A stretch of DNA of 64,000 nucleotides from Raillietiella orientalis (GCA_036172245.1 JAYWIR010000053.1:62001-126000); one strand, 5' to 3'; positions 3,001-35,547 are shown, counted from the stretch's first letter. Translations and numbers: made by a program. The notes: generated from the sequence alone by a model not told the origin.

Positions 3001-3016
3001 ACGCGATTCCCCGCAT
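1..3016 (-). pseudogene. A0 ORF2 (APE endonuclease + RT), disrupted
   Basis: LLQEIH, NVYAP, AGDFN, LDH, SDH; GIRQGDSLSPLLF and YADD in ORF 162..1511; broken by stops and frameshift. Confidence 0.92.
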
Positions 3017-4936: not shown

Positions 4937-5514
4937 CGTCGTCAAAATGTACGACGCCAAGATGAAGCGGATGAAAGCACGGAGACGAGAGCGAAGAAAA
5001 GCACGTCCGCACTCGATTGAAATCGCTCGCAATGAGGTGCGCCCTTCGCACGCCTGCTTCGGCCCACCAGTCTCGCCGCAGGGATTCGAAGAACGCAGTG
5101 CGTTCCTCGGCCCTGTGGCTGCCCTCCGGAGCGTACAGGTTCGTGACCACGAGGTCGATCGAGTCGGACAACTTGAGAACAAGCTGCCCAACTCGAACGT
5201 CCCCGTCGAACCGTGCACTACGCAGTGAGTTTTCGACGGACGGCTTCAGTAAAAAGGCCACTCCGCAGGAGTGATCTGTTCCGTTTCTCCACAGTAGCCT
5301 CCCCCTGCGATCCTCTCGAAATCCTGGCCTGCCTCTACTGTGAGCACGTGGGTCTTTTGCAGTAGAGCCAGGTCGAAGTCTCGCAGTATGGCGGCTACGT
5401 CTCGCCTCTTTCCGTCGCTGCTCAACCCGTTGACGTTCCAACAAGTAATTCGCAAGCGACGGCAGCAGGCGAGCCCACCCTTAGGTTTATTTATGGTGGT
5501 GTGGAGGAAACCGT

Positions 5515-7236: not shown

Positions 7237-7326
7237 TTCTGCCCAGGAACAACCGCGCTGAAAAACCCACAAACACCAGCAAAAACAGACGGTTTTCCGG
7301 AGCACCGAAAAAACACGTCCACTCAC

Positions 7327-8296
7327 CGCGGTGACGTCACTGCGGGCGCGATCGGCGCGGATTCGACGGTATCGATCGGTTTTACCGCTATTTTTTCCGC
7401 GGTTTTTATGACCGATACGCGTTCGATTTTCACCGAACAATCGCGGATCACCTGCTTCTTCTTCAGCGGTGCCGCCTTGTTGATCCGTTTGACCTCTTTC
7501 TTCGGGGCCTTTTTCTTCTTCTCCACCTTCTGCCAACCTTCCTCGTTCTCGGCGCTTTCTCCAGCTGGTTGTTCGCTGGTGGATGGCTGAGCAGCGGGTT
7601 GGTCGGCAGGGTGGGTTTCTGCCATTTCGTGACTCCGGTCCTGTTCCTTCGGCGTGTCTGCATTCCTCGCGCCTGTAGGAACTGACCTTCTTCTGTTGGG
7701 GCACATCCGCCTGATGTGCCCCTTTCCGCCGCAGCCCAAGCACACGATGTTGGGGCATCTCTTCTTCAGGTGCCCCGACACCTGGCAAAAGCCGCAGTAT
7801 ACGGGTTTCCCCACATACCACAGGTCGATCTCCTCCTCCCCGACCTGCAGTCTGTGGGGTAGCCCAGCCTCGGCACGTACCGTCACGCGCGCAGCGGCGT
7901 AACCACTAAATGCCCTGGTGTAACCCAGGACATTGGGTTTTGCCCACAACGCGTGGACCGTCCCGAACTTCTCCAAACTTTCCCGAACGGCGGTCTTGGC
8001 CATTCTCATCGTAATACCGGTGAGGTGGACAACGATGGAGTTGTCCGCCGTGAACGGGAAGATTCTTCGACCGTTCACGGTCACCGGCAGGCGGAGCAGC
8101 TGCTGAGCCATCCCTGCAGACTTGCAGTTCAGCTCAACCAGCTGCCCGCCACTTCGCACGGAAAGTCCGAGGACTTCTTCCTCCGGGACTTTCAATTTCT
8201 TAAATTCGGCCGCGAACGACCGTAAAACCGCGGGGGAGTACAGGCCATTTACCTTGTATAACAAGGCCGGGTTATACCCGTCGGCCATGTAAGCCC
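7327..8296 (-). mobile_element. LINE family K copy K2, ORF1 fragment (5' part missing, interrupted by K1)
   Basis: ORF 7323..8288 closely similar to K1 ORF1 (GYNPALLYKV; CGFCQVSGHLKKRC, CLGCGGKGHIRRMC). Confidence 0.87.
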
Positions 8297-9845
8297 GCGA
8301 AACGGAGGAAAACCGCTCCCCGCCGCGAAAAAACCAAGAGCTGCTGCGTCGTCGTAGTGTTTATTAACGCCATCGACCAATGCGGCGCTAAAGAACTCGC
8401 TGCTGCCCGTGCTTTACCCTCCGTTGACAAAGTCAACAGGGAGGGGAGCGAGGCTGCGGCGTCCGTCATCGAGCCCACGCTCGATCACGTCGCCTTTCAG
8501 CGTGCCGCGGAGGTGCTGGCTGCCTCGTTGTAACCGGCCGCCTTCAAGGCTGGCAAGAAGGCCGTCAGGCGTCCGGCTTCCCCTCAGGAGTCGGCCACTT
8601 CCGACCCCGAGGCGAAGGCCGGAAACAGAGCATCCATCTCCGCGGCACCCCGTAAAAAGGCAGGACGAAAGTCCACAATGCCCCTGGAGATCGTCTTCCC
8701 CGACAAAGGGAAAGAGATGGCTTCCGGTTGCGAGGGTGCCATGAGCGTGGGAAACTCCCGGGACCCGTCGCCTGAGAAACTCCCACGCTCCGGCTCGGAG
8801 GAGATGGACGGGCTGGAGGCCGAACCTGATCGGCCCCCAAAACTTACGGTGCCTGATCGGGCCAAGGTGCCTTTAGTGCCTGAAGAGGCCTCCTTCCCCA
8901 CGGACATCCCGAACACATGCCCCGCGGCAGGTGTCGCGACGCCACTTTCCCAGCCATAATGACGGGAATCGCCTCCCGTCTTCGTCTGCTGTTCGCCTGC
9001 TGGAACGTCAACGGGCTAAGCAACGACGGCAAGAGGCGTGACGTGGCCGCCACCCTGGCATCCTTCGACCTGGTGCTGCTGCAGGAGATCCACGTCATCT
9101 CCGCAGATCAAGCCCGGGAGAACGAACGGATCTCGGATGGTCGGATGCTGTGGCGCTGCGGTACCGCGAAATCTAGCGGTGTCGCCTTCCTGCTCCGACC
9201 AGTCATCGAGGCCGCAATAAAGGACTTACGGTTTGATGACGCCGGTCGCGTCGGTCAGCTGACTCAGCTGCTCCATCTCAATCGACCTGGTCGTCACCAA
9301 CTTGTACGCTCCTAGCGTTGAGGACGCGTTGCGGGCGAAGGCAAGAAGAGAATTCTACCTTGCCCTCGGACGCAATTGGCTGATCGAAGCAGACGTTTGC
9401 AAAGCGCACCTGATCGCAGGTGACTTCAAAATGCGCCTGCTTTCATGTGCGCCGGATACACTGAACGACCGCGTCAACAAGTTGTGCGCGCAAATGCATA
9501 CGTGCAACTTGCTGGCCGGAGATACGGACATGGAACGGAGCATCCATCAAGTGTACCTTGACCAGCACCTATGCTCTCGCGTGGGCAGGCGCGGCAAGTT
9601 ACGGTGCGAGCTGTCGGACCATGGCCGAATCGGGTTCGAAGTGCATCTGCGCCACAAGGGCCCCCCCTTGTCAGCGTGGCGTCTGCCAGGGAACTCTCTG
9701 AAGTTCCCGGACGCGACAGAACATCTCCGCGCGTTCATACGGAACTTCAGAATGCGGACGCTTCAGGACTGGGACCGCTTCAAGCTGTCTTCCCAGGAGT
9801 TCTGCGACCGGTTTCCTTTGCATCGCCAACCTGCGGGATTTGGGA
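8297..9845 (+). mobile_element. C-type LINE fragment E-left (ORF1 C-terminus + EN)
   Basis: Aligns to ~13915-15447; TAATG at 8957-8961; WNVNGL, LLQEIH, AGDF, SDH; ends at GGGATTTGGGA 9835-9845. Confidence 0.88.
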
Positions 9846-10056
9846 TTGTCACCCGGGTACGCCCGGGCCGTTTATTGAAAAAACTCTGGATAAACGTGGT
9901 ACGAGGCCTTACTAAGGTCCACACAACACCGGAGCTGCCGGGACGCTAAGACGCAGCCCGGCGTGACGCTCCTTGTCAGTGGAGGGGGATAGGGATCAAA
10001 ACAAAAAGAAAAATAAACATAAGGAAAACAAAGAAAGTTCAAGGGACAGGAAGGGA

Positions 10057-12834
10057 TCACAATCCACTAGGAGGTGGGCCCATCCTTCGCAGGATACCCT
10101 CCAGGTCCATGTTCATGCTTCCCAGATGGGGCCATCTTGCAGCTCTGCGCATGAAGCGGATCGCATGCAGGATGACATCCCTCGCGTGGGCATCGACTCC
10201 TCCGTCGCGAATGTCGCTCCAGGCGACCACGATGCCCCGGATGCAGCAGCGGGCTGCGGCGGGCTGCAGGGCGCCCCGCACGGAGAGGGGCCGAAGAACG
10301 ACTCTGGGCGCGCTGCCCATTGGGAGCCCCAGGGTCGTCCCGAACCGTTCCCACAAGGGTCGGAGGGCAGCAGAGACAACAAGTAGGTGGGGGAGCGATT
10401 CCCGCTTGCCGCACCTGGCACACTTACGCCTTATACTACCCCGGGTCCAGTGGAAGCGGCGCACGTTGCAGGGTAGACCCCAGTGCAACAGCAGCAGCGC
10501 CGACTCTTGCCACTTCAGGGGGAGAAGCCTGCATCCGAATAATATTGAGGGCCACTTCAGTTCATCCGTCGGCATGGCGAGCAGCTAGCCCCAGCGACCA
10601 AGTCCACTCAAGAGGGCACTCGGGGTCGTAGCATCTGCCAGTTCTTTCATGGTTCAACCGCCCATCTTCTTTTCCTTGCCTGCGATTCGGCAGGAGGCTT
10701 GCGACTTTTGCTTGCGGCCACTGGTTAAAGCCCTTCGTAGGTAGGGCAGGGTCGAGGCCAGAGTGGTAGTCTCCGCTTAGGTGCTCCTGGCGGGACACTC
10801 CAGAGTAGTCCGCAGTGTCCAGCAGGCGTTGGGGCCGAATTGCAGGCGGTTCGAGTCCTGGGAAGTCTGGAGGTTCAGATTGGCTTACGTCGCAACGCAT
10901 TCCTCCAGCCAGGCTGAGGAGTTGGCGGGCTGCATACCGTCCAGCCGTGGTCTCTCACCGGGGCTTCCATGCGCCCAAGGAGAAGGCCGCATCTTCTAAA
11001 CTTCCTGTCAGAGCACAGAAGGTACGACGAGAGTCCTTGCGTCCTGGACACACGGCTGGCAAGGATACGGGCCGGAACGCACCAAGAAGTGCTCCATGAC
11101 ATTGCTGCGATAACGAGTGTGCGGCATTGCAGCTGTATGTCCACGCGTTCCAGCGTCAGGAGGCCGAGACCGCCGTCCAGACGAGGAGCGCACAAGTCAT
11201 CTAGAGGCACACGTGGCATCCCGCTGCGCCAGAGGGCGATGCGGAGTAGGTCCTTGGTCCTCTTTTTAATGTCAAGGGGGACGGAACAAACAAAAAGCAG
11301 GGGGCGGAGGATGGAAGCCGCGAACGCGTTCCACACCGCGGCTCATTCCGGCAGAAGGAACAAGCCTTCCAGGAACGGGCCGATTGCCAACTCTACCTTT
11401 TGGAGACGACCAGTCCAGGCTTCTGCGAGGCAGAATTCCTTCAACGGGACACCCAGGTACTTCAAGTACCTCGCCGTGAGATCCATAAGCGGACCCAGTC
11501 CTGCTGCTCAGCCCACGCCGCACCTACCGGTACGACCGACGACTTCGCCTTGTTCACTGTAAGTCCGGTCCCGCGGCTAAGCACAGCGAAGAAATCCCCG
11601 ACCGCCTTCGCCGGGGTGGACATCGGCAACAGAGGCAAAAGATCGTCGGCGTACGCTGCTACGGCGGGCGTGCCGGTACACGACCTCGGCAAGGGAGCCA
11701 AATTCACCCTGTACGCTCTCAGCACCACCTCAAAGTAGGTGCTAAAGAGCAGGGGACTGAGACTGTCGCCCTCCCGTATGCCCCGCCGTACCGGCACGCC
11801 GTACGCCATTTGACCTCTGAAAGAGATATTGATCAGCGCGCTGCGCCAGCAAGAGCGCAGGTAGGTGAGTAGGGAGGGAGGAAAGCCCATGCGTCCCAGG
11901 AGCTCCAGCAGGAGATCCTGGTCCACGCAGTGAAACTCTTTATGCAGATCGACTGCGATAGCTAAGGCTCCCTTTTCCACCTGGGAGTCCTGTCCCTGCC
12001 CGGCTGACGCCCCCAAAGCGGGGCTACCAATCCTTCCCGCTTCCTTTTCTTCACTACTCTGCACATGAAACCATGTGCTCGCGAAGAAGAGGTTGGCCTC
12101 CATACTTCGCCCGGGAACAGCGTAAGTCTGCTCCGGGCTAATTTTGGAATTGGCCACCTGCCCCAGACACGAAGCCCACAGTCCGGCAATCAACTTGGCG
12201 TCCGTGTTCACAATTGTGATCGGACGCCAGTTGCTGAGTTTCCTGAGGTCTCCTCCTTTCGGAAGGAGCCTCACTCTGGCTGATCGAAACGAGGCGGGTA
12301 CATCGCCTTCATCTCGGCTCAGCCTTGTCAACTTAAGCACCAGGGGTGCCAACTCTTCCGCGAAGCATTGAAAAAACTCCGCAGGCAGGCCGTCCTCCCC
12401 TGTTGCTTTCCGCCTCTTGAGCCTTTTAATACCGGCGAGAATTTCGCCGGTGGTAAAAGGCTCGTCGAGGCTTTCCTTCTCCTCCTCCCCTATTAACGGG
12501 GCACCGTTCGGAAGCAAGCGCCGAGAGGCATCTTGTTCCGGATGCTCCCTGGCGTAAAGGGAGGAATAATAACGCCGCACGAGGTGGCGTATTCTAGCCG
12601 TAGCCGAGTGCTCCCGGCCCTGGTCGTCCAGCAAACTGGCCGATTCTGATTGCCAGGCTTGACTTTCGACCCCGGCTCGGTACTCTGCCAGGCGACGGAC
12701 ATTAAGGGTCCTCGCGTAACGACGGGCATACAAGTACGCTTCTTCGTTACGGATCCCCTCCCCAAATTTCCGGGGCAGGAGGTGCAAGGTGAACTCCTCG
12801 CAAAACTCGCAAACCAATTAGCGAGATTGCGGAG
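10057..12834 (-). pseudogene. D ORF2 3' part (RT + C-terminal CCHC)
   Basis: NWRPIT, GIREGDSLSPLL, YADD, CARCGKRESLPHLL. Confidence 0.9.
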
Positions 12835-12919
12835 CGTCGAGCGGACGTGTCTTTTCGCTGCTCCTGAATTTCCATTTCCGGTGGTGTTTTGTGTGGTGTG
12901 GGTGGAGGATTAGGCAGCA

Positions 12920-14559
12920 ATGCCTGATTCCACCACCGGTGAGATTCCGGGGGCGATGACCCCATTGCCCACGGAGGAGATGGAAGTGAGAGCGCCCGCC
13001 ACTACTGATGCGCCCCCAGCCTAACCCAGGGCTTAGAACGCCGTGACTGCCGCGCCCACGCCGGCGGCTGTGGCAGAAATGCGGGCCTACCTGGAGGAGG
13101 GGTACAACCCACCCCTCCTATAAAAGGTGGGCGGATTATATTCTCCCCAGAGCGCGCCCGCCTTCTCGCAGGCGATGCGCGCTCTCGACGTAAAAAAGGA
13201 GGAGCTTCTGGCTATGTCCGTCAGAAGCGGGGGTCAATTTGTGGAAGTTATCTGCAACGAGGCAACTCTTGCGCAGAGACTTCTGCGAACCCCAGTAACT
13301 ATGGGCAGACGGAGGCTTCTCCCAATTACTGAAGACCGGTCGGTGATCATTCACCTGACCGGTATCACGTTCCGGATGACCAAGGAGGCAGTGCGGAACG
13401 AAATAAATAAATTTGCGACCGTCCACGCGCTGTGAGGTAAGCCTACTCCTTTCGTTGATTTCGATAGGGTGCTTGGCGGCCTGGATGCGGCGCGAGTGAC
13501 GGTTCGCGAAGGTGTGAGTTTCCCCACTATCTCACCGTAAACGGTGAATCCGTCGACGTGTGTTACGTGGGGAAATCCAAGTTCTGCGGCTGCTGCAGCA
13601 GCTTTGGTCACCTTAAAATGAGGTGTTCGAGCGTGCAGTGCCAGCAATGCAAACAAGCGGGGCACACCCTTCTGGTGTGCCCCCAAAACACAGTCCGCGT
13701 CGTGTACGCGAAAAACGCGAGAAAGCGCGCGGCTAAAAAAAGAGAGAAGCTATCAGCTCGTGCTGCTGCTAAGGAGGTCACCTCCGCCACCAAGTCCAAG
13801 GCCAGCCCCGAGACCCCGGCGAAAAATGCCTAAAAGGTCGAGGGCGATGGTCAAGAGCCAGGGTGGCAGAAGGTCGACCCCAAGGAAAAAACCCATAAGA
13901 AGGGAAAAAACGTGGCGAAACGGAGCGAAACCGCTCTGCGCCGCGAAAAAATTAAAAGCTGCTGCGTCGTTATAGAGCGGATTCCCGCCATCGACGAATG
14001 CGGCGCTGAAGAACTCGCTGCTGCCCCTGCTCAACCCTTCGTTGACAAAGTCAACAAGGAGGGGAGCGAGGCTGCGGCGTCCGTCATCGAGCTCACGCTC
14101 AATGACGTCGCCTTCGAGCGCGCCGCGGAGGAGCTGGTTGCCTCGCTGCAGCCGGTTGCCCCCAAGGTTGGCAAGAAGGCCGTCAGGAGTCCGGGTTCCC
14201 CTCAGGAGTCGGCCACTTCCGACCCCGAGGTGACGGCCGGAAACACAGCATCCATCTCCGCAACACCCCGCAAAAAGGCAGGACGAAAGTCCACAATGCC
14301 CCAGAAGATAGTCTCCCCCGACGAAGAGGAAGAGATGGCTTCCAGTAGCGAGGGTGCCATGAGCGTGGGAATCTCCCGGGACCCGTCGCCCGAGAGAATT
14401 CCACGCTCGGACACGGAGTGGATGGTGAGAATCGAGGCCGAACAGGTACCCCAGGCGCCTAAAGAGGCCTTCGTCCTCGTTCCGATGGTCCTCGCACCGA
14501 TGGACTTTTCCTACACCTGCCCCGCGGCAGGTGCCTCGACGCCACTTTCCCAGCTATAA
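12920..14559 (+). pseudogene. C1 ORF1
   Basis: AYLEEGYNPPL; CGCCSSFGHLKMRC, CQQCKQAGHTLLVC; several stops and frameshifts; TAATG at 14557-14561. Confidence 0.86.
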
Positions 14560-15447
14560 TGCCGTGAATCGCCTCTCGCCGTCGTCTTCTGAACGCCTGT
14601 TGGAACGTCAACGGGCTAAGCGACGACGGCAAGAGGCGTGACGTGGCCTCCACCCTGGCATCCCGCGATCTGGTGCTGCTGCGGGAGATTTACGTGATCT
14701 CCGCAGATCAACCCCGGGAGATCGAACGGATCTCGGGTGTGCGGTTGCTGTGGCGTTGCGGCACCGCGAAATCAAGCGGTGTCGCCTTCCTGCTCCGGCC
14801 AGCCATCGAGGCCGCAATAAAGGACGTTCGGTTCGAAGACGGAGGTCCCGTCGGTCAGCTGACTTTCAGCTGGTCCGACTCTATCGACCTTTTCGTCACC
14901 AACCTATACGCTCCTAGCGGAAACAACGCGTTGAGGGCGAAGGCAAGAAGGGAATTCTACCTTCCCCTGAGACGTGATTGGCTGACCGATGCAGGAGTTC
15001 GTAAAGCTCACCTGATCGCAGGTGAGTTCAACCTGCGCCTGCTTTCTGGTGCGCCGGATACACTGAACGACCGCGTCAACGAGTTGTGCGCAAAAATGCA
15101 CACGCGCAACTTGTTGGCCGGGGACACGGCCATGGAAAGCAGCATCCATCACGTGTACCTTGATCAGCACCTATGCTGTCGGGTGGGCAGGCGCGACAAG
15201 GTACCATCCGAGCTCTCGGACCATGGTCGGATCATGTTCGAAGTGCGTCCGCGCGAAAAGGGCTTCTTCTCGTCAGCGTGCCGTCTGCCAGGGGACTGGC
15301 TGAAGTTTCCCGACGCATCGGAGCACCTCCGCGCATTTATTCGCAGCTTCAGGATGCAGACACTTCACGACTGGGACCGCTTAAAGCGGTCGGTCCAGGA
15401 GTTCTGCGACCAGTTCCCCCTGCATCGCCTACCTGCGGGATTTGGGG
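14559..15447 (+). pseudogene. C1 ORF2 endonuclease domain
   Basis: WNVNGL, NLYAP, AGEFN, SDH, FPLHRLPAGFG, then the B1 3' end. Confidence 0.9.
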
Positions 15448-18020
15448 TTGTCACCCGGGTACGCTTGGGGCGTTTATTGAAAAAACTTCACATAAACGTG
15501 GTACGAGGCCCCACTAACGGCCACACAACACCGGACATGCCAAGACGCCGGGACGCAGCCCGGCGTGACGCTCCTCGGCAGTGGAGGGGGATAGAAATCG
15601 AAACAAAAAGAAAAATAAAGATAAAGAAAACAAAAAAGAGTTTAGAGGGAGGTTAAGGGATCACGTTCCACTTAGAGGAGGGTCCATTCTTCGCAGGATG
15701 CCCTGTAGGTCCATCTTCATGTTTTTTAGATTGGGCCATCATTCGTGTCGGCCAGCCAATCGCGCTTCAGGGTTTCCAGCAGCATGGTACGGTCGCTGTA
15801 TCCCCCTTTTCCGCTCAAGGAGTACACGTTTGTGACGATCAATTCGATCGAGTCGGACCAGCTGAGAATCAGCTCACCTACCCGACCGTGGTCATCAAAG
15901 CGTACGCCCTTCACGGCAGCGTCGATGGCCGGTTTGACGAAGAACGCGACCCTGCAGGTGTTGCGGGCGCCGCATCGCCAATACAGTCGACCCCCCGCGA
16001 TCGTCTCGATCTCCTGGACTTCTGCCGAGGTGAACACGTGGATCTCCTGCAGCAGGGCCAGGTCGAAGTCACGCAGGGTATCGGCCGTTTCTCGTCTGTT
16101 GCCGTCGTCGCGCAGCCCGTCGACGTTCCAACTGGCCACGCGGATTCTACGGCGACAGGCGAGCCCAGGTATTATTCCTGGAAAATCGGCTGTGCGGCGT
16201 CCGCCACCTGTTGGAACGGGACGCTAGTTGGAGGAGGAGGGTCAGGCGCTGCGTGCACCTGGTCCCGCTCCTCCTTCGGTAACGGCGCGTCGAGCGGGTC
16301 ACCCTCAGGTGGGATCGCGCCTACCTGTTGGCCCTCCTCCATGGGGGCGGGCTGTTCAGGCTCGACCACTGCAGTGAGGACTTCGCCCCGCTGCTCACCC
16401 TCCTCCATGGGGGTGGCCGGCTCGACGGCTTCCGAGAATGGGAGTTCCCCCTCCGGGATTCCCACGTTACCGCTAGCTTCCTACTTCTCCTCCTCGCTGG
16501 TGGATGGGAGGCTCCTCCTGGGTTTCTGGGACTTGCGTCTCGACTTCCTGGGGTGTGCCTTCGACGAGGAGGATGCACTACCGGCCCCCAGGTACGGGTC
16601 ACCTGTGGGGGCCTTTTTCGCGGGAGCCGGCCTTCGCACGGCCTTGCGTGAGGGGTTCTCACGCTCCGCCAGCGTGGCCGCGAGCACCTCCGCCGCCATT
16701 GCGAACGCGGCGTCCTCGGTGTCGACCGGCGCGTCGCACGGCTGACCCTCTGTTTGCACAGAGGGTTCGCCGTCGCGAACTTCGGGCGCGACGGAAACGG
16801 CGAGGGGAGGCTCGTCGCCCCAGGTGGCATCTTCCGGTACGACGATACGTTCCAGTGCCACCGTGCACTCGCGTACGGTTTTCGAACGCGGCCCGCGTTT
16901 TTTTGCCTCACCGGCCAGCTTCTCTTTCTTCTTTTTAAAAGGAGATTTTTTCTGTTTTCTGGCTGCTACAAGTTGCAAGCCCTCTTCACCTTCCGCCTCT
17001 TGGAAAGGTTTACCCTCCGTCTTTTCTTTTGGAGGTTGAGGTTCTGGCAGCTTCAGCCGGCCAGCGTCCGCCTTAGGTCTTGTGACCTTTAGTGAGCGTT
17101 TCTTCTGCGCCTTTTTCGCAACAGGAGGAACCGGGGTGGGGCATTTTGGGCACATACGTCAAACGTGGCCCTTCTCCCCGCACATGTGGCATTGGATGTT
17201 AGGACACCTCTTGCGAAGGTGTCCTACGGTATCGCAGTAGCCGCAATACCGGGGCTTTCCCACGTACCAGAGGTCCACGCTCTCTTGCGCGACCTCCAGC
17301 TTGTGGGGAAGCCCACAATCCTTACTGACGGTTACCCGCTATGCAGCCTGGCCTTCGAAATGGCTATTGAAGCCTTCAAAGATGGTTGTCTTAGGCCACA
17401 GCGCGTGCACCTCGCCTAACTTCTGCAGTTCTTGTGCTACCGCAGAGCGAGTCATACGGCTCGTTATTCCAGTGAGATGGACCACCACGGAGCGGTCCAT
17501 CGTCACCAGCAAGATCTTGCGGCCGTCGACGTTCAGCGGGTTGGTGATGAGAGTCTGAGCCAAGGTGATCTCCTTGCACACCACCTCGACTCGCTGACCT
17601 CCGCTGAGAACGGACAAACCGTCAAGATCTTGTACTCTTACTCCGGCGTTTTGCAGCGCTTTCGAAAACGCGCGTGCCGTTTTTCCATCAAATAAGGGGC
17701 CTACCTGGTATAACAAGCTGGGCTTGTACCCAGCTGCCCGGTAGGCCGCCATCTCGGCCACGGTTATCGCGCTCGGCGCGGTCACCATGGCGCTCCAGCT
17801 CCTCGCCTTGGGCGGCGAGGGCGATTCCGGGGCGGACGCTCCTGATTCTGTAGGCTGTGGGGGTGGGCAAGCCTCCCCCACACCTACCTCCATCGTGGTG
17901 TCCCCAGGCATCGCCGCCATCGGACACCAACGATGTGAAAAAGCACACACAGAACCAAAAAAACCGCTTTCTGCTGCTCGTTTGCAGAGCGCCGGAAAAA
18001 CACGTCCCCTCTCGAGGAGA
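15448..18020 (-). mobile_element. LINE family B copy B1, internally deleted (about 3 kb of ORF2 missing)
   Basis: Both termini present; EN ...DWLADTN fused at ~15741 to the ORF2 C-terminus; flanked by GGGATTTGGGG. Confidence 0.9.
16172..17920 (-). pseudogene. B1 ORF1
   Basis: GYKPSLLYQVG, knuckle region, PMEEG repeats; broken by stops. Confidence 0.85.
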
Positions 18021-18246
18021 GGGATTTGGGGTTTACACCCGGGAACGCCCGGGGCGTTTATTGTATAAAGCTCTACAAGAAAACGTGGTACAAGGCCCCA
18101 CTAACGGCCACACAACACCGGACCTGCCGAGACGCCGGGACGCAGCCCAGCGTGACCCTCCTCGGCTGTGGAGGGGGATAGGGATCAAAACAAAATTGAA
18201 AATCAAAATAAAGCAAAACAAAAAGAGTTTGAGGGAGGGGGAGGGA

Positions 18247-21200: not shown

Positions 21201-21839
21201 AACTTTTCCCCGTTTGCCGACCCGCGAGCACAGGTCGACATCCAGGAAGAAGTGGTCGATGCTGCGGTATACTCCCTCCGCGTCTGCCAACAAGTTGCGC
21301 GTGCGCATGGCCGCGCACAACTCGTTGGCCGTGCGTTCTTGTGCTTCGGGCTCACCTGACAGCAAACGGAGATTGAAGTCTCCAGCTATCAGGTGTGCCT
21401 TTCCCGCATTCGTGTCGGCCAGCCAATCGCGCTTCAGGGTTTCCAGCAGCATGGTACGGTCGCTGTATCCCCCTTTTCCGCTCGGGGAGTACACGTTCGT
21501 GACGATCAATTCGATCGAGTCGGACCAGCTGAGAATCAGCTGACCGATCCGACCGTCGTCATCAAAGCGTACGCCCTTCACGGCAGCGTCGATGGCCGGC
21601 TTGACAAAGAACGCGACCCCGCAGGTGTTGCGGGCGCCGCATCGCCAATACACTCGACCCCCCGCGAGCGCCTCGATCTCCTGGACGTCTGCCGAGGTGA
21701 TCACGTGGATCTCCTGCAGCAGCGTTAAATCGAAGTCACGCAGGGTGTCGGCCGTATCTCGTTTGTTGCCGTCGTCGCGCAGCCCGTTGACGTTCCAACT
21801 AGCCACGCGGATTCGACGGCGACAGGCGAGCCCAGGTGT
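18247..21839 (-). pseudogene. B2 ORF2 (EN-RT-CCHC)
   Basis: WNVNGL, AGDFN, IDH, SDH; SIRQGDSLSPLLF, YADD; CARCGERDSLPHLL. Confidence 0.92.
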
Positions 21840-23591
21840 TATTCCTGGGAAATCGGCTGTGCGGCGTCCGCCACCTGTTGGGGCGGGACGCTAGGTGGAG
21901 GAGGAGGGACAGGTGCCTCTAGCACCTGGCCACCCTCTTCCATTTGTGACTGCGCGTCGGGCGGTTCACCCTCAGGTGGGGTCGCGCCTACCTGCTGGCC
22001 CTCCTCCATAGGGGTGGGCTCCTCAGGGTCCGCGACGGCAGGGGGGATTTCGCCTCCCTGCTCACCCTCCTCCATGGGGGTGTCCTGCTCTACGGCTTCC
22101 GCGCGTGGGAACTCCTCCTCCGGGATTCTCACGCTGTCGGCGACTTCCTGCTTCTCCTCCTCACTCGTGGAGGGGAGACGCTTCCTCGGCTTTTGGAATT
22201 TGCGTCCCGTCTTCCCGGGGGGGTGCCCCCGAGGAGGAGGATGCATTTCCGGCCCCCAGTTCGCACTCACCTGCGGGGGCCTTCTTCGGCGGAGCCGGCC
22301 TTCGCACGGCCTTGCGTGAGGGGTTCTCACTCTCAGCCAGCGTGGACGCGAGCGTCTCCGCCGCCTTGGCGAAGGCGGCGTTCTCGCCGGCGGCGAGCGC
22401 GTCGCGCGTCTCACCCTCTGTGCAAACAGAGGGTTCGCCGTCGCGAACCTCGGGCGCGGCGGAAACGGCGAGGGGAGGCTCGTCGCCCCGGGTGGCAGCC
22501 TCGGGAACGCTGATGCGCTCCAGTGCTACCGAGCACTCGCGGAGAGTTTTAGATCGCGGACCAGGTTTTTTCGCCTTCGCGATCGGCTTTTTCTGCGCCT
22601 TCTCTTGTGAACCTTTTTTGGGTTCTTTTGTGGCCTTTACCAGCGTCCATCCTTCTTCCTCGCCCGCGTCTTTCGCGGTTTATTCCACCGCTGCCTGGGT
22701 TGGAGGAGGAGGAGAAGGCTGCTGGGGCTGGCCGTTTTCGCGATGAGGTCTTTCGACCTTATTCACCTTTTTTGCCTGTGCCTTTTTGGCAGCAGGTGGC
22801 ACCGGGGTGGGGCGTTTAGGGCACACACGACGGACGTGTCCCTTTTCCACGCACAAGTGGCACTCGATATTCGGGCACCGCCTGCGCACATGCCCTACTG
22901 CATCGCAGTAGCCACAATAGCGGGGTTTCCCCACGTACCAGATGTCGACGGGCTTCTTCTCGACCTCCAGTTTGTTTGGTAACTCAGCACCCTCGTTCGC
23001 AGTGACACGCTCTGCTGCCTGGCCATTAAAGAGGCTGTTATAGCCGTCAAAAATGGTTGGCTTTGGCCACAGCGCATGCACATCTCCGTATTTTCTCAAT
23101 TCCGCGGTCACCGCACAGCGCGTCATGCGGTTCGTGATCCCCGTTAGATGGACCACTACGGAGCGGTCTATGCTAACGGGTAGGATCTTTCGGCCAGCCA
23201 CATTCAGCAAGGTGTTGATGAGGCGCTGCGTTAGGGCTGCGTCTTTGCAGACGACCTCCACGCGTTGCCCCCCGCTGAGTACGGCGAGACCGTCAAGGTC
23301 CTCCTCACGCACGGGGAATTCCTGTAGTGCCTTGCTAAAGGCACGCGCGGTGCGACCGTCGAACAGTTTTCCTACCTTATAAACCAGGGATGGTTTATAT
23401 CCGGAGGCCCTGTAGGCCGCTTCCTCAGCCAAGGTTTCCGCGCTAGGCGCGGCGACCATGGCGCTCCAGCTCCTCGTCTTGGGCGACGAGGGCGATTTCG
23501 GGGCGGGTGCCCCTGATTCTGTAGGTCGTGGGGGGGGGCTAGCCTCCCTCACGCCTACCTTTATCGTGATGTCCTCTGGCAGCGATGCCAT
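21839..23591 (-). pseudogene. B2 ORF1
   Basis: GYKPSLVYKVG; CGYCDAVGHVRRRC, CHLCVEKGHVRRVC; C-terminal PMEEG(E/Q)Q repeats. Confidence 0.88.
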
Positions 23592-23691
23592 CGGACACCA
23601 ACGATGTGAAAAAGCACACACTGAACCCAAAAAACCGCTTTCCGCTGCTCGTTCGCGGAGCGCCGGAAAAACACGTCCGCTCTCGAGGAGA

Positions 23692-26290
23692 GGGATTTGG
23701 GGAGGGGCCGCGTAACGAAAGGTGCTATCTTCAGGCCCGACGTTACGCAAGAACCCCCGACATGCGCGGATTAGCAGAGTATCGAGAGATAGCCGAGAGG
23801 CAAGCCTGGCAATCCGGTTCGGCCAGCTTGTGGACGACCAGGGCCGAAACCACTCGGTTCCAGTTGAGAAACGCGGGATAGTGAGGAAATTTTACTCCTC
23901 CCTGTTCGCCAGGGCGCCTACGGAGCAGGCTGTCTCACGACTCCTGCTTCCGGAAGGTGCTCCAGCAATCGGGGAGGAGGAGAAAAGGAACCTCGACGAG
24001 CCTCTCACGATGGGCGAGATCATCAGCTCACCTTGTTGATCCGCGAAACAGGTGACGTTCCCACCTCGTTTCGTTCAACAAAGGTGAGGCTTTTCCCTAA
24101 GAAAGGAGACCTTGGGAGCATGAACAACTGGCGTCCCATCACAACAGTGAATGCGGACGCCAGGTTGCTAGCCAAGCTGTGGGCACAGCGCCTGGGACGG
24201 GTCGCCAACATCTTCATCAGCTCGGAGCAGACATATGCTGTTCCCGGGCGAAGTATGGAGGCGAACCTGTTCCACGCTTCCACATGGTTAGAGCTCCAAC
24301 AAAAAAGGAGCATAATAAGCAACCGGAATTCCGGTGCGTCCTTCGGTGGGGAAAGGGATGGTCGGGAGGGGAGAGGAGCCCTCGCGCTCGCAGTCGATTT
24401 GCATAAAGCATTCCATTGCGTCGTCCACAATCTCCTTTTGGAGCTTCTGGAACACTTGGGCTTCCCGGCCTCTTTGCAGGCCTACCTGCGCTCCAGCTGG
24501 CGCGACGCGCTTATTAATGTTCTTTTTAGTGGATCCACCGTGTACGGCGTAACGGTGCGACGCGGCATACGGCAGGGAGAAAGCCTCAGCCACTTGCTCT
24601 TCAGCGCCTATTTCGAATTGGTGCTGAGAGCATACAGGGAGACTCTGGCACACCTGCCGTGCGCTTGTCCCGGTACGCCTGCGGTTTCGGCGTACGCGGA
24701 CGACCTTCTGCTGCTGCTGCCTATGTCCACCCCGGCCTCGGCGGTCGAGGACTTCTTCGAACTGCTGAGTCGTGGAACAGGACTGACGGTGAACAGGGCG
24801 AAGTCGTCCGTAATGCCAGTCGGAGCGGCGTGGGCAGGGCAGCAGGAATGAGTCCGTTTGGGGATCCCCACGGTGAGGTACTTCAGGTACCTTGGTGTGC
24901 CGTTGGGGGACTACTCCCCTGCGGAAGCGTGGTCCCCCTGCCTTTAGAAGGCTCAGGCGGCGATCGGCCCGTTCCAGGACCGCAGGTTCTTCTTGCATGA
25001 ACGGGCCGCGGCGTGGAACGCGTTTGCGTCCCCCCTCCTTCGCCCCTTGCTTTTTGTTTGATCCACCTCAGCGGAGTCAAAGAATAGGACGAAGGACCTC
25101 CTGAGGATCGCCCTTTGGGGTAGAGGTAGGCCCCGTGTCCGTCTTTCGGACTTGTGCGCTCCTCGTCGGGATGGTGGTCTGGGCCTCCTGACGTTAGAGC
25201 GGCTGGAGATACAGCTCCAGTTCCGAGTTGTTGCCTTTATGCCAGAAAATGGGTGCACCCCTTGGTGCCTCCCTGCACGTCTCCTCGTCGATCGGGCCAC
25301 CGGCAATGCGGGACTCTCGTCCTACTTTGCACTCCAAAGCCCCATCTGCCACTGCGGACTTCAGATTCGAAGGGCGGCCAAGCTCGTGAAGACCAACTTG
25401 GAGCGGATCCTCGTACGCCCCGCGAACGGTCCTGCCTGGTTGCAGGAAACCGTCCGCACGTGGGCGATGACTCAGGAGCAGAGCCGCAACACGAGCGAAT
25501 AGCTCTGTTCGGTCCTCACGCCCACCGCACGTTCCGAGAAATCTTTGAGGATCCCCGAAGGAGAGCGTGGGCACAAAGAACCTCCCTTGCTGCGGTACTG
25601 CCTACCTTACGGGAACATCTGGGCAGCGACGTCGCGGCACAATGGGAGGTTACTGTCAAGATCGCCAGCAGGGCAAAGAAGATCGGGGATTGGAGAACGG
25701 GTCAGCTCACCAACGCTGCGACCCCGAGGACCACCCCAAATGGACTGTTGCGCTGGGGAGAGCTACTGGATGTTCCAGAGGAACATCTCGAGTGGCCCCC
25801 GGTGCTCATGGACTCGCACACCCTCCCCATGATGTGGCAACAGTCGGCACTGATGGTGTTGCATTGGGGGCTTCCTTGCAACGCCCGCCGACACCACTGG
25901 ACGCGGGGGGGTGTCAACCCTAATTGTGTCAGGTGCGGGGAGAGGGAATACCTCCCCCACCTGTTAGTGGATTGTGTTGCCCTCCATCCCTTGTTTGAAC
26001 GCTTTGCTGCAGCCCTGGGGATCCCCGGAGGAAACCCAAGAGCCGATTTGCGCCCCCTCTTCGTCCGTGACGCCCTGCCTCCAGCGGCCGCGCTTGCAGC
26101 CCTGTGCTGTCTACGCGGGATCGTCGTGGCATGGAGCAAAGCGACAGGAGGATCCAGCGACAGGGATGCCAACGTGTATGCCGTCCGTTTCCTCAGGATG
26201 GCGACGCGATGGCCCCATCTGGAACTACACACGCAGCAACAGCTTGCCGGCATCCTCCAGAGGATGACGGACCCTCCGAGCAGACTGTGA
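23692..26290 (+). pseudogene. C1 ORF2 resumed (linker, RT, CCHC)
   Basis: GFGEGPRNERCYLQARRY continues from PAGFG; YADD; CVRCGEREYLPHLLVDC; stop at 26290. Confidence 0.9.
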
Positions 26291-26506
26291 TCCCTTCCCT
26301 CACCCTATCCGATTTTTGTTTATTTTTTTTTGTTTTCTTTTTGTTTCGTTCCCCCTCCCCTCTGCTGCCGAGGTCGACCGCACCGGTCTGCGCACCGGTA
26401 GCCCGGCAAGCAATATCTTTCCAGGGCGTGGCTGGACTACTGGTCTAGTCACACATTATATAGGTTTATTCCTGAGAATAAACGCCCAGGCGCAACCGGG
26501 TTTCAA

Positions 26507-29272
26507 GCGAGATTGCGGAGGGTGACGTCTTAGGAATTCGCGAAGGTGTTCCTCCTCACCTGAGAGTGGCGTCCGGTCCCCAGGCAGACGCCACGGCCTG
26601 GATTGGGGGCCCTTGTCGCGCGGGCACACCTCGAATATCAACCGGAAATGGTCTGACAGCTCTGACGCAACTCTTCCCGTTTGCCGACCCGTGAACACAG
26701 GTCGACGTCCACGAAGACGTGGTCGATGCTGCTGACCATTTCCGAAAGATCCCCTAACAAGTTGCGCGTGCGCATGGCGGCGCACAACCCGTTAGCCGTC
26801 CGATCCTGTGCGTGTGGCTCACCTCATAGCAGGCGGAGATTAAAGTCTCCCGCTATCAAGTGAGCCACGCGCACGTTCGCTCGCATCAGCCAGTCGCGCT
26901 TCAGGGTTTCCAGGAACGCCTTACGTTCGTGGTACCTGGTAGGACCGCTCGGAGCGTACACATTTGTTACGACGAGGTCGATCGTGTCGGACCACCTGAG
27001 AATAAGCTGGCCGACACGACCGGCTTCGTCAAAGCGCACGCCCTTCACGGCTGCGTCGACTGCCGGCTTCATAAAAAACGCGACGCCGCAGGTGTATCGG
27101 GTGCCGCATTGCCACATCAACCGTCCCCCTGCGATCCTTTCGATCTCCTGGGCATTCTCCGCGGTGATCACGTGGATCTCCTGCAGGAGTACCAGGTCGA
27201 AGTCACGCAGGGTGGCGGCCGTGTCCCGTCTGTTGCCGTCGTCGCGCAGCCCGTTCACGTTCCAGCAGGCCACGCGTAATCGATGGCGACAGGCGAGCCC
27301 AGGCGTTACTCCTGGGAAAGTGGTAATGGGGCTCCCGCTACCTGGTCGGGCGGGACGGATGGAGGAACGGGATCACCGCGCACCGGTTCTCCCTCCTCCA
27401 TTAGGGCCGATTCTTCGGCGGACCGCAACGGTTGAAGGGGGCGGGTATCACGCACCTGCTCCCCCTCTTCCATGGGAGCCGATTCGTCGGTTGCGTTGGA
27501 CGGCAGGGGCGAGCGCTTGTCAGCTGTCTGCTGCCCCTCCTCCATGGCTATCTCCTGAACAGGTTCCACCGTTGGGAGGGTGCGGCAATCACTCACCTTA
27601 TCCCCCTCCTTCATGGGGGTCTCCAGTTGCTCGGTAGCGGAGGGTGGGAAAATCCCTCCCTCCGTTCCCACGCTGCCGGCTTCCCCCTCGGATGCCGGTG
27701 CGTCCCCCTCCTTTGTCGGGATGCGCCTCTTGGGATTCTAGGACTTCCGTCCAGTCTTCTTCGGAGGCGCCTTCGCGGAGAAGGACGCTCTTCCGGCATC
27801 CAGTTCGTGGTCACCTGTTCGAGGTGCCTTGCTCGCGGCCGGCCTTCGCAAGGCCTTTCGCGCGCCGTTCTCACGCTCCGCGAGTTCGGCCGCTTTGGAG
27901 CGAGCTCCCCCGGTGGAGGTCGCTCCCAAGCGGCGAGCGCGTCGCACGGCTCCCCCTCTGTTTGCACAGAGGGTTCGCCTTCCTCGATCGCGGCTTCGGC
28001 GTCAACCAGGCGGGAGATATCTCCCCCGGTGGAGGTCTCGGGGATCTCTACTCGCTCCAAAGCGACCGAACATTCGCGGAGCAAAGCGCGGCGTTGCCTT
28101 CTATTTAGAGAAGTTGTCGCGGGTTCCGCTGTCGGTTCTTCGGTTTTTCGAATTTTTTTACTTTTCGGCTTCGCTGTCCGCCAGTCCTCGTTGTCACCAG
28201 CGTCGTCGGGAGTTTTCTCGACCGCCGTTTGCTGGGAGCTTTGGGACTCTGGCTTTTTGCTTGGCCTTTACTTTGCTTCAGTGGTCTTGCTTGTTTTCTC
28301 CGAGCGTTTACCCTTACCTTTTTTCAAGGCACAGGGCGCTAGAGGTTCCCGCTTTTAGCACACTTTTCGGAGGTTGCCCTTCTCCCCGCAGTGCATACAC
28401 TGGATGTGAGGGCACCGTTTTTTCAGGTGCCCTGTTGCATCAAAGTGCCCACAGTACTTGCGCTTGCCCACGTACCAGACGTCGACGACCTCGTTGCCGA
28501 CGTCGAGTTTGTGGTACAGCCCATTGTTGTCGTGGACCGTCACACGCGCTGCAACCATGCCACTGAACAGTCTTCCGTATGTTTGGAAGACGTTGGGCTT
28601 AGTCCAGAGCGCGTGAACCGTACCATGTTTTTGCAACTCTTACTGCACGCCAGCTTTGGTCATGCGAAGAGTTACAACCGTAAGGTGGGCAACAATGGAG
28701 CGATCCTCCGTTACAGGGAAGACCTTTCGGCCTTCCAGAGTGATGGGAGTGTTCAGCAGGCTTTCAGCCAGACTTGCGTTTTTGCAAGTCAGCTCCATCC
28801 GCTGGCCCCCACTCATCACGGAGAGACCTTCGAGGTCTTCCTCTTTGACATCCTTCCGCTGTAACTCTCTTTCAAAGTTACGAGCGGTGTTCCCCACAAA
28901 CAGGTTTCCTACCTTGTAAATCAAGGACGGGTTGTATCCTTGTTCCAGGTAGGCGCGCTATTCTGCTAAGGCAGCTGGAGATGGAGCTGCAGCCACGGAG
29001 CTCCAGGTCTTCGTGGATGGAGCAAGTGGAACCAAGGACGCGGTTGCCCCCATTTTCAAGGGGGCGGTTGTGGCCTTTTCCAAGGCGGCGGTTGTCCCCT
29101 TTTTCAAGAGGACGGTTGCGGCCTTTTGCACGAGGACGGTTGCTCCCTTTTTCAAGGGGGCGGTTGCTCTCTCCTCCGTGGGGGCGGTTGCCCTCACCTC
29201 AATAGGTTGGGGAGAGGAGCAATCCTCTACCCCGCCGACTTCCATCGCGCTGTCCTCAGGCATTTGTGCCAT
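26507..29272 (-). pseudogene. D ORF1 (27306-29272) and EN (26507-27306)
   Basis: GYNPSLIYKVG; CMHCGEKGNLRKVC; (A/L/P)MEEG repeats; WNVNGL, NVYAP, AGDFN. Confidence 0.87.
29040..29200. repeat. 24-bp tandem repeat (~6.5 units) in the D ORF1 N-terminus
   Basis: Units begin (G/A)CGGTTG every 24 bp; encodes ATAPLKKG-like octapeptides. Confidence 0.9.
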
Positions 29273-29364
29273 TGGACACCGCAGATGCTCCACACACAAA
29301 CAATAACGAAAAAGAACGCTTTACAACAGGCGCAGAGGAGCGCGGAAAAAACACGTCCGCACTC

Positions 29365-35001: not shown

Positions 35002-35468
35002 CACCTGCGCTCGCCAGTCGCCGTCGGATTCGCGCGGCCTGTTGGAATTTCAACGGGCTGCGCGACGACCGTAACAGGCGAGATACAGCCGACACCCTGC
35101 GGGAGTTCGACCTGGCCCTGCTGCAGGAGATCCACGTGATCACAGCGGCAGACGTCCAGGAGATCGAGACGATTGCGGGGTGTCGGCTGTACTGGCAATT
35201 CGGCATCAGCAACACCTGCGGGGTCGCGTTCTTGGTGAAGCCGGCCATCGACGCTGCCGTGAAGGGAGTGCGCTTCGATGACGACGGTCGGGTCTTTCAG
35301 CTGACTCTCGGCTTGTCCGACTCGATCGATCTGATCGTCACGAATGTGTACGCCCCAACCGGTCAAAAGGGATACAGCAACCGTACCAGGCTGCTTGAAT
35401 CCCTGAAGCGCGACTGGCTGGCGAACACGAGCGTGCGGAAGGCTCAGCTGATAGCGGGAGATTTCAAA

Positions 35469-35492: not shown

Positions 35493-35547
35493 CTCTCGTC
35501 TCCGTGCTTTCATCCGCTTCACCTTGGCGTCGTACATTTTGACGACG

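Follow-up and report, generated by a model that had tools for sequence, protein, structure and literature searches.

We read the 64-kb window of Raillietiella orientalis DNA analysed here (the whole stretch, 64,000 nucleotides) as a self-built pile of L1-like non-LTR retrotransposons, in which sibling subfamilies have sequence-specific targets in each other's endonuclease/linker coding region, a reading to which we assign a probability of roughly 0.7. The window, which is free of genes, is a mosaic of L1-like elements (APE endonuclease plus reverse transcriptase, RT) from several sibling subfamilies, and LINE sequence fills the entire 64 kb.

The elements are 5.4–5.9 kb long, with an ORF1 carrying two CCHC knuckles and an ORF2 in which an N-terminal APE endonuclease is followed by RT, the arrangement of APE-type LINEs. 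Pfam matches were obtained for Exo_endo_phos (E = 1e-14, in the B2 ORF at 20886–21806) and for RVT_1 (E = 7e-19 and 4e-18, in the A and B ORFs). In ORF1 translations, such as that of 7323–8288, two CX2CX4HX4C knuckles are visible, and a Pfam search of ORF1 gave no match at E ≤ 1e-3. The best solved relative is human LINE-1 ORF2p (RT, E = 5e-35; endonuclease, E = 2e-6) and R2 is weaker (1e-13), in a ranking of PDB matches. The zf-RVT domain (PF13966) is present in many database homologues, protein atlas matches were to generic EN-RT clusters only, and an Rfam scan of the window returned no family at gathering score. All elements of the pile share a 5' end (..GCGGACGTGT..) and a 3' end (AATAAA + CCCGG..CCGGG + ..AA); all nine element 3' ends found by motif have AATAAA, a GC-rich palindrome-like stretch and AA, and a poly(A) tail is absent from the window's elements. 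Within each element the two ends are unlike each other, that is, there are no terminal repeats. The 3' hairpin folds, with a stability not above that of shuffles (z 0.1 to -1.8) and no covariation, and we do not claim it as a real structure. Target-site duplications (TSDs), as made by APE-type LINEs, are 14 bp for C1, 11 bp for B0+B1 and B2, and 8 bp for A2 and A3, a length specific to each family (8, 11 and 14 bp for A, B and C). None of the window's copies has an intact ORF2, and the activity is therefore historical.

The nest at 8297–31720 consists of the following parts.

8297–9834, plus strand: E5', a C-type fragment running from the end of ORF1 through the APE endonuclease as far as the G-F-G codons
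9835–9845, plus strand: copy of the B-type target, GGGATTTGGGA, at D's 3' junction
9846–12820, minus strand: 3' part of D, B-type, with RT, C-terminal region and 3' end ..GGGCGTACCCGGGTGACAA
12821–12834, plus strand: left copy of the 14-bp TSD GCGAGATTGCGGAG, antisense of the D codons ..LRNL
12835–15436, plus strand: 5' part of C1, with full-length 5' end CGTCGAGCGGACGTG, ORF1 and the APE domain up to ..LPA
15437–15447, plus strand: copy 1 of the 11-bp B target GGGATTTGGGG, the C1 G-F-G codons
15448–18020, minus strand: B0+B1, a single B-type copy, internally deleted
15448–15740, minus strand: B0, the final 293 bp of the B element
15741–18020, minus strand: B1, the 5'UTR, ORF1 and first ~60 codons of ORF2
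18021–18031, plus strand: copy 2 of GGGATTTGGGG, the spacer separating B0+B1 from B2
18032–23691, minus strand: B2, a full-length B-type element of 5,660 bp with five disabling ORF2 mutations
23692–23702, plus strand: copy 3 of GGGATTTGGGG, exact
23703–26506, plus strand: 3' part of C1, with the remaining ORF2 and 3' end AATAAACGCCCAGGCGCAACCGGGTTTCAA
26507–26520, plus strand: right copy of the 14-bp TSD, an exact match to the left copy
26521–29365, minus strand: 5' part of D, with the APE start, ORF1 and 5'UTR, ending in an 8-nt microhomology (29358–65) common with E3
29358–31708, plus strand: E3, a C-clade RT/3' fragment starting at the equivalent of C1 24154
31709–31720, plus strand: TCGGAAGATTGA, a 12-nt spacer resembling the C target, which separates the 3' end of E3 from a divergent C-like element whose 5' end (CGTCGG..) lies at 31721

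The C-type insertion is delimited by a sequence, GCGAGATTGCGGAG, that occurs exactly twice in the window, with its copies directly adjoining the C-type 5' end (CGTCGAGCGGACGTG.., 12835) and 3' end (..AACCGGGTTTCAA, 26506). The equivalent site is single-copy in the uninterrupted B copies B2 and B+, where both D flanks are contiguous; the B2 version is GGAGACTGCGGAG at 21038. From this exact 14-bp duplication and its single-copy counterparts it follows that C1 (12835–26506, plus strand) inserted into D (B-type, minus strand), and the original observation of a perfect TSD around C1, with D split by C1 and C1 split in turn by minus-strand B-type sequence, stands as made. C1 lies antisense in its host, at a target that codes in D for ..DVTLRNL. 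This target had also been placed about 70–80 bp upstream of the G-F-G-equivalent position, which describes B2, where it begins 80 bp from the start of that site (gap 68 bp); in D a 19-bp deletion at this place has reduced the gap to 50 bp. Only one TSD-confirmed C event had been seen at first, and in the window the count is still one; the case for C-into-B specificity is weaker than that for B-into-C. A search for further C-in-B junctions yielded none with a TSD beyond C1: apart from that of C1, a C-clade 3' end occurs only at 31708 (E3), where the spacer TCGGAAGATTGA, which only resembles the target, leads into the 5' end of another C-like element. The equivalent C site is unoccupied in the other three of the four B-clade copies holding it, and the site sequences differ there.

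C1 itself is split at its G-F-G codons (15437/23702) by B0+B1 and B2, both in antisense orientation and with an 11-bp TSD. The target GGGATTTGGGG is exact at 15437, 18021 and 23692, each time at a B end, and brackets the two insertions; by our own arithmetic, an exact 11-mer has a chance expectation of ~0.03 matches in 128 kb of sequence (both strands). Three identical 11-bp targets around two insertions are the signature of a double insertion at one site. Both B1 and B2 are present inside C1 as first noted, except that B1 is just part of the internally deleted copy B0+B1. The same B 3' junction is also found in two other C-type copies, at 9835 (E5') and 58655 (C2_5'), giving four B insertions (D, B0+B1, B2 and B+) at the same nucleotides of three different C-type copies, with all three C-type copies that have the G-F-G region occupied. 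Five of the seven window sites within one mismatch of GGGATTTGGGG are occupied, the two empty ones being at 7165 and 60748. Independent insertions into the same target, the mark of a sequence-specific LINE, are represented for B-type elements by the junctions at 9835, 15437, 18021/23692 and 58655, and B-into-C insertion at the G-F-G codons appears to be sequence-specific, a conclusion that we consider well supported. In a related public run, one contig joins 15436 to 23692 through 11 shared letters, corresponding to an uninterrupted C-type site, a weak match whose shorter side has only 26 letters.

The target system is broader than the B/C pair, and A, G, and a divergent B copy are also involved. 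A-type elements insert in sense orientation, with an 8-bp TSD, at GATTTCAAT, the G-D-F-N codons of B-like copies. Two B-like hosts (5016; 35461/47279), visibly diverged from each other in alignment, have A junctions at GATTTCAA(T), and an A-A tandem is separated by ATTTCAAT; altogether there are three A insertions in two hosts at one site. A-type elements occur only in hosts reading GAT-TTC-AAT, and B copies with GAC at the G-D-F-N codon are without an A insertion. The divergent B copy, B', has 75% identity to the other B copies. It lies in sense orientation within an ORF1, its site being CCTCCAAGGCTGG and its TSD a degenerate one of ~13 bp, which means that targeting by the B clade is not limited to G-F-G; the B' site shares only CCYCCAA with the canonical B target. 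B+ is flanked on one side by a C-type element and on the other by a different element, 'G', of the A clade; the G-F-G site of G reads GGCTTCGGAGA and bears a perfect inverted duplication of 17 nt. These chimeric flanks and the inverted duplication indicate that rearrangement also shapes the region. The G element is located in the endonuclease start of a C-like copy.

Four levels of nesting, C-type and B-type in alternation, had been proposed. Three of these (D, C1, and the B copies) are solid, but the outermost, E containing D, lacks a proper 5' junction. On its 3' side D has a canonical junction (9835 GGGATTTGGGA, then the B 3' end), but on the 5' side there is no second target copy: the D 5' end (29365) joins C-like sequence at the equivalent of C1 24154, with 452 bp of C missing, no duplication, and the 8-nt microhomology CGCACTCC at 29358–65 between the D 5' end and E3. 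The left piece, E5', is equivalent to C1 13915–15436 with 84% identity, and its left edge adjoins another element's minus-strand ORF1, whereas the right piece, E3, is 73% identical to C1; E3 is a possible continuation of E5'. Against other B copies, the D 5' module reaches an identity of only ~62%.

The nesting fixes the order of events: D (B-type) came first, C1 (C-type) second, and B0+B1 and B2 (B-type) last, so that B-type elements were active before as well as after a C-type insertion. The view that B and C were active together, each providing the other's target, is borne out in that each lies in the other's ORF2; that their periods of activity overlapped is something we infer. Divergence was predicted to fall inward (E > D > C1 > B2), and disabling ORF2 mutations per codons do run in that direction (E3 7/663, D 7/1041, C1 about 5/1040, B2 5/1068, leaving out two short spurious matches of 65 codons in the C1 5' piece and 49 codons in E5'), as do private substitutions at otherwise invariant columns, but the trend is not significant, and these age proxies are small counts (5–8 per element) confounded by closeness of the nearest in-window relative.

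Mechanistically, the endonuclease would make a bottom-strand nick at the target's left edge, target-primed reverse transcription (TPRT) would be primed at the nick, and the top strand would be cut 8, 11 or 14 bp downstream of it. The target would then be duplicated on either side of the new copy and could be hit again, which would give head-to-tail tandems, while each new copy would provide the other family with a new and intact target, and alternating nests would result. As TSDs would regenerate targets in this way, clusters would grow by themselves, and their growth may be open-ended; the endonuclease is presumably the reader of the target. Under this explanation, B-type 3' ends would mostly be flanked by CCCCAAATCCC-like sequence.

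Recurrent junctions could also be copies of one event, if segmental duplication, unequal crossing-over or ectopic recombination, in a region rich in repeats and resembling heterochromatin, had amplified a single ancestral composite (a C-type copy with a B-type insertion). The region has indeed been rearranged (the chimeric B+ flanks, the 17-nt inverted duplication, the 452-bp gap at the D 5' junction, and a 1,223-bp tandem duplication at 6517–8298), and the junction pieces differ similarly on both sides (C part 82–89%, B part 80–87%). We nevertheless think such an origin unlikely. With respect to the INDEPENDENCE of events, B1 and B2 are just 79% identical in their 5' parts yet are bracketed by three identical targets, so the pair are not mutual duplicates. 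Pairwise identities of B 3' ends (B0-B2 87%, B0-B+ 83%, D-B+ 84%) fail to mirror those of the C part (C1-C2 89%, C1-E5' 84%), and copying of one composite junction is therefore unsupported, in a test that is weak with a B part of only 293 bp. C1, for its part, is bounded by a clean TSD of 14 bp and has an equivalent empty site, and the A-type insertions repeat the pattern at another site, in two hosts that have visibly diverged.

It is also rather improbable, in our judgement, that these LINEs target a region or themselves, that is, LINE-rich chromatin or existing copies generally, with the shared points as a by-product of a short, loose endonuclease preference. Clusters of the Zepp type are described as arising from nested insertion into existing copies (PMC8226300, PMC3446292), all 64 kb here is LINE sequence, and B' sits at a different site that has only CCYCCAA in common with the canonical B target. 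Against a loose preference stand four B insertions at the same nucleotide in three hosts, with five of seven near-exact 11-mers occupied, A-type insertions confined to GAT-TTC-AAT hosts and lacking from GAC hosts, and the family-specific TSD lengths. An assembly artefact, in which repeats were collapsed or fused into chimeras, seems highly improbable, even though the region consists wholly of repeats that are 65–94% identical, one public run holds only 8% of the sampled words of window 12000–21999, and no listed piece spans the whole of 9300–29299; exact TSDs precisely at canonical termini and three in-register target copies are not expected from misassembly. Of the 702 public-run contigs placed on 9300–29299, 640 are less than 95% alike; these contigs are relatives or other copies and therefore do not validate the assembly. 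Homology-guided insertion was considered and rejected, because both B and C lie antisense to the host copy and nothing in their termini is shared with the sequences flanking the target.

To our knowledge, the growth of nested LINE clusters has been poorly described at the sequence level. The self-built pile offers a concrete, testable rule: the target of one subfamily is a short codon string in the ORF2 of another, duplication preserves this target, and each copy imports a new one. If the rule held across the genome, it would account for LINE islands of the tandem and Russian-doll kind with no need for chromatin targeting, provide natural APE endonucleases with 8–14-bp specificities that are of interest for targeted insertion tools, and amount to transposon-against-transposon competition at the codon level. 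More speculatively, and with clearly less than even odds, the elements may form a guild of sibling L1-like LINEs whose endonucleases each read a conserved motif of a sibling's endonuclease gene (G-D-F-N, ..LRNL, G-F-G), where insertion kills a rival copy yet supplies the rival's new landing site. Together with TSD-regenerated targets, this could produce a self-propagating, gene-free LINE island and be a general route to Zepp-type (centromere-like) clusters, with an arms race played out in synonymous codons (GAT vs. GAC at G-D-F-N, GGGATTTGGGG vs. AGATTCGGGG at G-F-G).

Site-specific LINEs are known in rDNA, telomeres, microsatellites, and other transposons. Our full-text literature search (with Repbase Reports and most subscription journals outside its scope) found no report of reciprocal LINE-into-LINE targeting. 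In metagenome scans, an endonuclease protein alignment matched 347 pattern stretches, none confirmed, and the B 3'-end motif (DNA) matched 24 loci, close to chance expectation, with none related by blastn or tblastn. A study of TE networks in Drosophila reportedly found ordinary nested TE insertions in heterochromatin, with younger elements within older ones; sites in such nests are scattered, whereas here the same nucleotides are reused repeatedly. R1 makes a 14-bp TSD, and its target is a host multicopy gene (28S rDNA), whereas here the target is another retrotransposon's ORF. The likeness to R1 lies in a site-specific LINE whose TSD preserves the target, such that a second hit at the site gives head-to-tail dimers; tandems from double insertion, with the target kept in the junction, are described for R1 and the P element (PMC5932611).

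Another parallel is offered by the target-specific LINEs of the Tx1 clade, which include Tx1L in the piggyBac-type Tx1D, Tx1-Mar in Mariner-N4_AMi, Tx1-8_Crp and Tx1-4_AMi in LTR retrotransposons, and Tx1-9_AMi in Harbinger (PMC4494074). These too are APE-type LINEs found at a defined place within another transposon family, with specificity attributed to the endonuclease (PMC4494074). Target-specific insertion into a transposon family was likewise found here, with four B insertions in three C-type hosts and three A insertions in two hosts, a comparison by insertion habit. Unlike in Tx1, the hosts are sibling LINE subfamilies that are hit within their own endonuclease-coding sequence, and the relation is reciprocal at least once (B in C, C in B).

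The Zepp and ZeppL elements of green algae form GC-rich clusters of nested L1-type LINE copies, and, as described, they resemble our pile as L1-like LINEs that insert into existing copies and are possible building blocks of centromere-type regions (PMC3446292, PMC8226300). Zepp arrays are described as mostly 3' ends, a result of frequent 5' truncation (PMC3446292, PMC8226300). The pile is not such an array: C1, B1, B2, A2, A3, and the element at 31721 start full-length next to the target, and truncated copies are only E3, B+ and perhaps E5'. Compared by description only, our elements differ from Zepp in that most copies have a precise full-length 5' end, and in that subfamilies cross-target fixed codons, with 8–14-bp TSDs and without poly(A).

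In a self-comparison of the window, repeats of 5.4–5.9 kb, in both orientations and with 65–94% mutual identity, fill almost all of the 64 kb. Translations of the long ORFs show two CX2CX4HX4C knuckles in ORF1 and Exo_endo_phos (APE) and RVT_1 domains in ORF2, and the closest relatives of solved structure are human LINE-1 ORF2p (RT, E=5e-35; EN, E=2e-6), with R2 proteins next (1e-13). One of the 61 database homologues reaches 55% identity, on a 2.9-kb metagenome contig, and the others are eukaryotic EN-RT proteins at 22–35% identity, many with zf-RVT. Given these domains and relatives, the repeats are best regarded as L1-like non-LTR retrotransposons. An Rfam search of the window returned zero family matches, and no copy retains an intact ORF2.

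An alignment of the RT region of nine copies separates three clades: A (A2 and A3 at 94% identity, and a distant element, G, at 64%), B (B2, B+, D, and B', 75–88%), and C (C1 and E3, only 73%). Each family has typical termini:

A-type: 5' end CGAGTGCGGACGTG; 3' end AATAAACACCCCGGCGTGACCGGGTGATAA
B-type: 5' end TCTCCTCGAGAGCGGACGTG; 3' end AATAAACGCCCCGGGCGTTCCCGGGTGTAAA
C-type: 5' end CGTCGAGCGGACGTG; 3' end AATAAACGCCCAGGCGCAACCGGGTTTCAA

Poly(A) is absent at all nine 3' ends located by motif. A terminal GC-rich palindrome-like stretch can be folded, yet its stability is not above that of shuffles (z from 0.1 to −1.8), so we regard it as no more than a conserved motif of the termini. Two more LINE families are present: one at 59383–60800 (+), whose 5' end (..GGAGACGTGTTTCC) lies near 59383 and whose ORF1 shares 48% identity with A-type ORF1, and a much more distant EN-RT ORF at 61729–63999 (−), which is 25% identical to A ORF2 and runs past the window edge.

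Copies of the B and C subfamilies form what the original prediction described as a four-level nest, in which E contains D, D contains C1, and C1 contains B1 and B2:

8297–9834, plus: E5', C-type piece
9846–12820 (3' part) and 26521–29365 (5' part), minus: D, B-type copy split by C1
12835–15436 and 23703–26506, plus: C1, C-type copy
15448–18020, minus: B0 + B1, B-type
18032–23691, minus: B2, B-type copy
29358–31708, plus: E3, C-type piece

The perfect 14-bp TSD predicted around C1 is exact: the 14-mer GCGAGATTGCGGAG occurs at 12821–34 and 26507–20 and nowhere else in the window, directly outside the C-type 5' end and the C-type 3' end. In uninterrupted B copies the counterparts of the two D flanks run together without a break, and the site is found once (GGAGACTGCGGAG at 21038 in B2). 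Because of this duplication at C-type ends and the single site in uninterrupted copies, C1 is a bona fide antisense insertion into D, at a site that codes for ..DVTLRNL on the D sense strand. This reciprocal half, C into B, is supported by one event in one window. After the 3' end of E3 (31708) come TCGGAAGATTGA and then at once a divergent C-like element (31721, 5' end CGTCGG..), a head-to-tail pair; the resemblance of its spacer to the C1 target is suggestive only.

C1 is in turn broken at ..LPAGFG by minus-strand B-type DNA. The order is C1 ..CCTGCG, GGGATTTGGGG, a first B copy (3' end to 5' end), GGGATTTGGGG, B2 (3' end to 5' end), GGGATTTGGGG, and AGGGGCC.. of C1, and the three 11-mers (15437, 18021, and 23692) are the only exact ones in the window. 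Two B-type insertions are therefore present in C1 as predicted, but B1 is only part of the first: together with B0, a 293-bp 3' terminal piece (15448–15740), it is a single, internally deleted copy. The 5' parts of B1 and B2 share only 79% identity, so this site was hit twice, and the pair did not come from duplication of one copy. In one related public run, a contig connects 15436 to 23692 (11 letters are ambiguous), the arrangement that an unbroken C-type site should give; only 26 letters fall on its shorter side.

The B 3' junction (target, then ..CCCGGGTGACAA in antisense) recurs at 9835 in E5' and at 58655 in C2_5', a third C-type fragment, and the C-type copies that hold the G-F-G region are occupied in three cases out of three. 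Within the window, five of the seven sites at most one mismatch from the 11-mer are B junctions; the empty near-sites, one mismatch away, lie at 7165–7175 and 60748–60758, and recognition of the B target probably extends past 11 bp. The idea that these recurrent junctions are copies of one composite junction finds no support, as the B-part identities (B0–B2 87%, B0–D 83%, B0–B+ 83%, D–B+ 84%) fail to mirror the C-part identities (C1–C2_5' 89%, C1–E5' 84%, E5'–C2_5' 82%), although a B part of 293 bp gives little to go on.

The outermost level, E containing D, is half borne out and as a level unproven. D has a canonical 3' junction in E5', whereas its 5' end (29365) is fused to C-like sequence at the point that corresponds to C1 24154, with an 8-nt overlap (CGCACTCC), 452 bp of C absent, and no second target copy at this junction. 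On one hand, D may have inserted once, deleting 452 bp of its target and joining at its 5' end through microhomology, a course known from L1 insertions. On the other hand, and about equally likely, E5' and E3 may be parts of different elements, as E3 is 73% identical to C1 and E5' 84%. That contrast is not decisive because mosaics are evidently frequent in this region: D matches B2 at 84% identity in the RT region (the 9846–12820 part), but its 5' module (5'UTR/ORF1, 26521–29365) reaches only ~62% with any of the remaining B copies, which suggests module exchange between subfamilies.

Nesting fixes the order of events as D, then C1, then B0+B1 and B2. From this B, C, B succession we infer that the activity periods of B and C overlapped, and the 84% identity of D and B2 marks "B-type" as a long-lived lineage, not a single burst. 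Private substitutions were counted in the RT and EN regions at alignment columns invariant in all other copies, and disabling mutations (frameshifts and stops) in a frameshift-aware alignment to the A-type protein, with two short spurious matches excluded.

Private substitutions and disabling ORF2 mutations
E3: RT 72/627; disabling 7/663 codons
E5': EN 12/198; disabling about 1/204 codons
D: RT 33/588, EN 14/200; disabling 7/1041 codons
C1: RT 38/593, EN 7/193; disabling about 5/1040 codons
B2: RT 26/581, EN 7/193; disabling 5/1068 codons
A2: RT 12/567
A3: disabling 3/1113 codons

Both proxies fall inward, as predicted for divergence, but the differences are not significant, and the private-substitution counts are also affected by the closeness of the most similar other copy in the window.

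Insertions are not confined to B and C:

1–5014, minus: A1, abutting the G-D-F-N codons of a diverged B-like fragment at 5016–5026
31721–33148 and 50631–51147: divergent C-like element
33165–35467 and 47279–50617: B', host of the A2–A3 tandem
35461–47286, sense to host: A2–A3 tandem
51148–54232, minus: G, A-clade, stopping at its own G-F-G codons

Two B-like hosts, diverged from each other, carry A-type insertions at their G-D-F-N codons, in sense orientation. The A1 host junction is GCGATTTCAAT–A1 at 5016. In B' (junction 35461), A2 and A3 stand head to tail with ATTTCAA(T) before, between, and after them, ATTTCAAT being the spacer (41376) and recurring after the tandem (47279). B copies reading GAC-TTC/TTT-AAT are unoccupied by A, and the equivalent site of A-type itself reads GGGGACTTCAAC. 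B', with its A–A cargo, lies in sense inside ORF1 of the divergent C-like element, between CCCTTCACGGCCAG (33149–33162) and CCTCCAAGGCTGG (50618–50630), a degenerate ~13-bp TSD that agrees at 10 of 13 positions, starts CCYYCA, and has only CCYCCAA in common with the canonical B target. The 3' end of G (..GGTGAGAA/ATCTCTTGCGC, 51148) is inserted, in antisense, in the early part of the endonuclease gene of the C-like element.

The flanks of B+ derive from different elements, C-type with GGGATTTGCGG on the right and G, beginning at its own G-F-G codons (GGCTTCGGAGA), on the left. A perfect 17-nt inverted duplication (54197–54213 / 54216–54232) lies beside the G end and the 5'-truncated B+ end, and a tandem duplication of 1,223-bp period (6517–7075 and 7740–8298) is 75% identical. 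Processes besides insertion thus shape the region. The element holding the 6517–8298 duplication, in its ORF1 region, is on the minus strand; it borders E5' at 8297 and runs on into the B-like fragment carrying A1. The C-like element stops at ..GCGCAAGAGAT (51147; region 51100–51147, +), and an opposite-orientation C-type fragment (59380 down to 58656; 59360–59400, −) starts with a similar GCCCAGGTGAT at the corresponding position, and an inversion breakpoint may lie here.

The insertions have precise termini and reuse identical nucleotides, TSD lengths are family-specific (8, 11, and 14 bp), and the targets are EN/linker coding sequence of other subfamilies, kept on both sides of each insertion. 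By extension from TPRT and sequence-specific APE LINEs (Tx1, R1; PMC4494074), each subfamily's endonuclease would nick its own target on the bottom strand, at the left edge; cDNA synthesis would, given the lack of poly(A), begin precisely at the 3' terminus of the RNA; and the top strand would be cut at a fixed distance downstream. Tandems and alternating nests would then arise automatically, as the target is restored by the duplication and each new copy brings the other family's target intact. B and C have each landed in the other's ORF2, and open-ended alternating growth would be a predicted consequence.

Within one window, this nesting and cross-targeting is real and mechanistically neat. 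TE-targeting LINEs, nested LINE clusters, and double-insertion tandems are already known; searches of article full texts yielded no sibling LINE subfamilies reciprocally targeting fixed codons of each other's endonuclease gene. R1 and P elements show double insertion in which the target survives at the tandem junction (PMC5932611), as between B0+B1 and B2. Zepp and ZeppL build nested LINE clusters with existing copies as targets (PMC3446292 and PMC8226300); further papers on Chlamydomonas gave no information about target sites. Tx1 LINEs share the targeting of other TEs, namely piggyBac, Mariner, LTR, and Harbinger elements (PMC4494074), whereas the hosts in the window are sibling LINE subfamilies.
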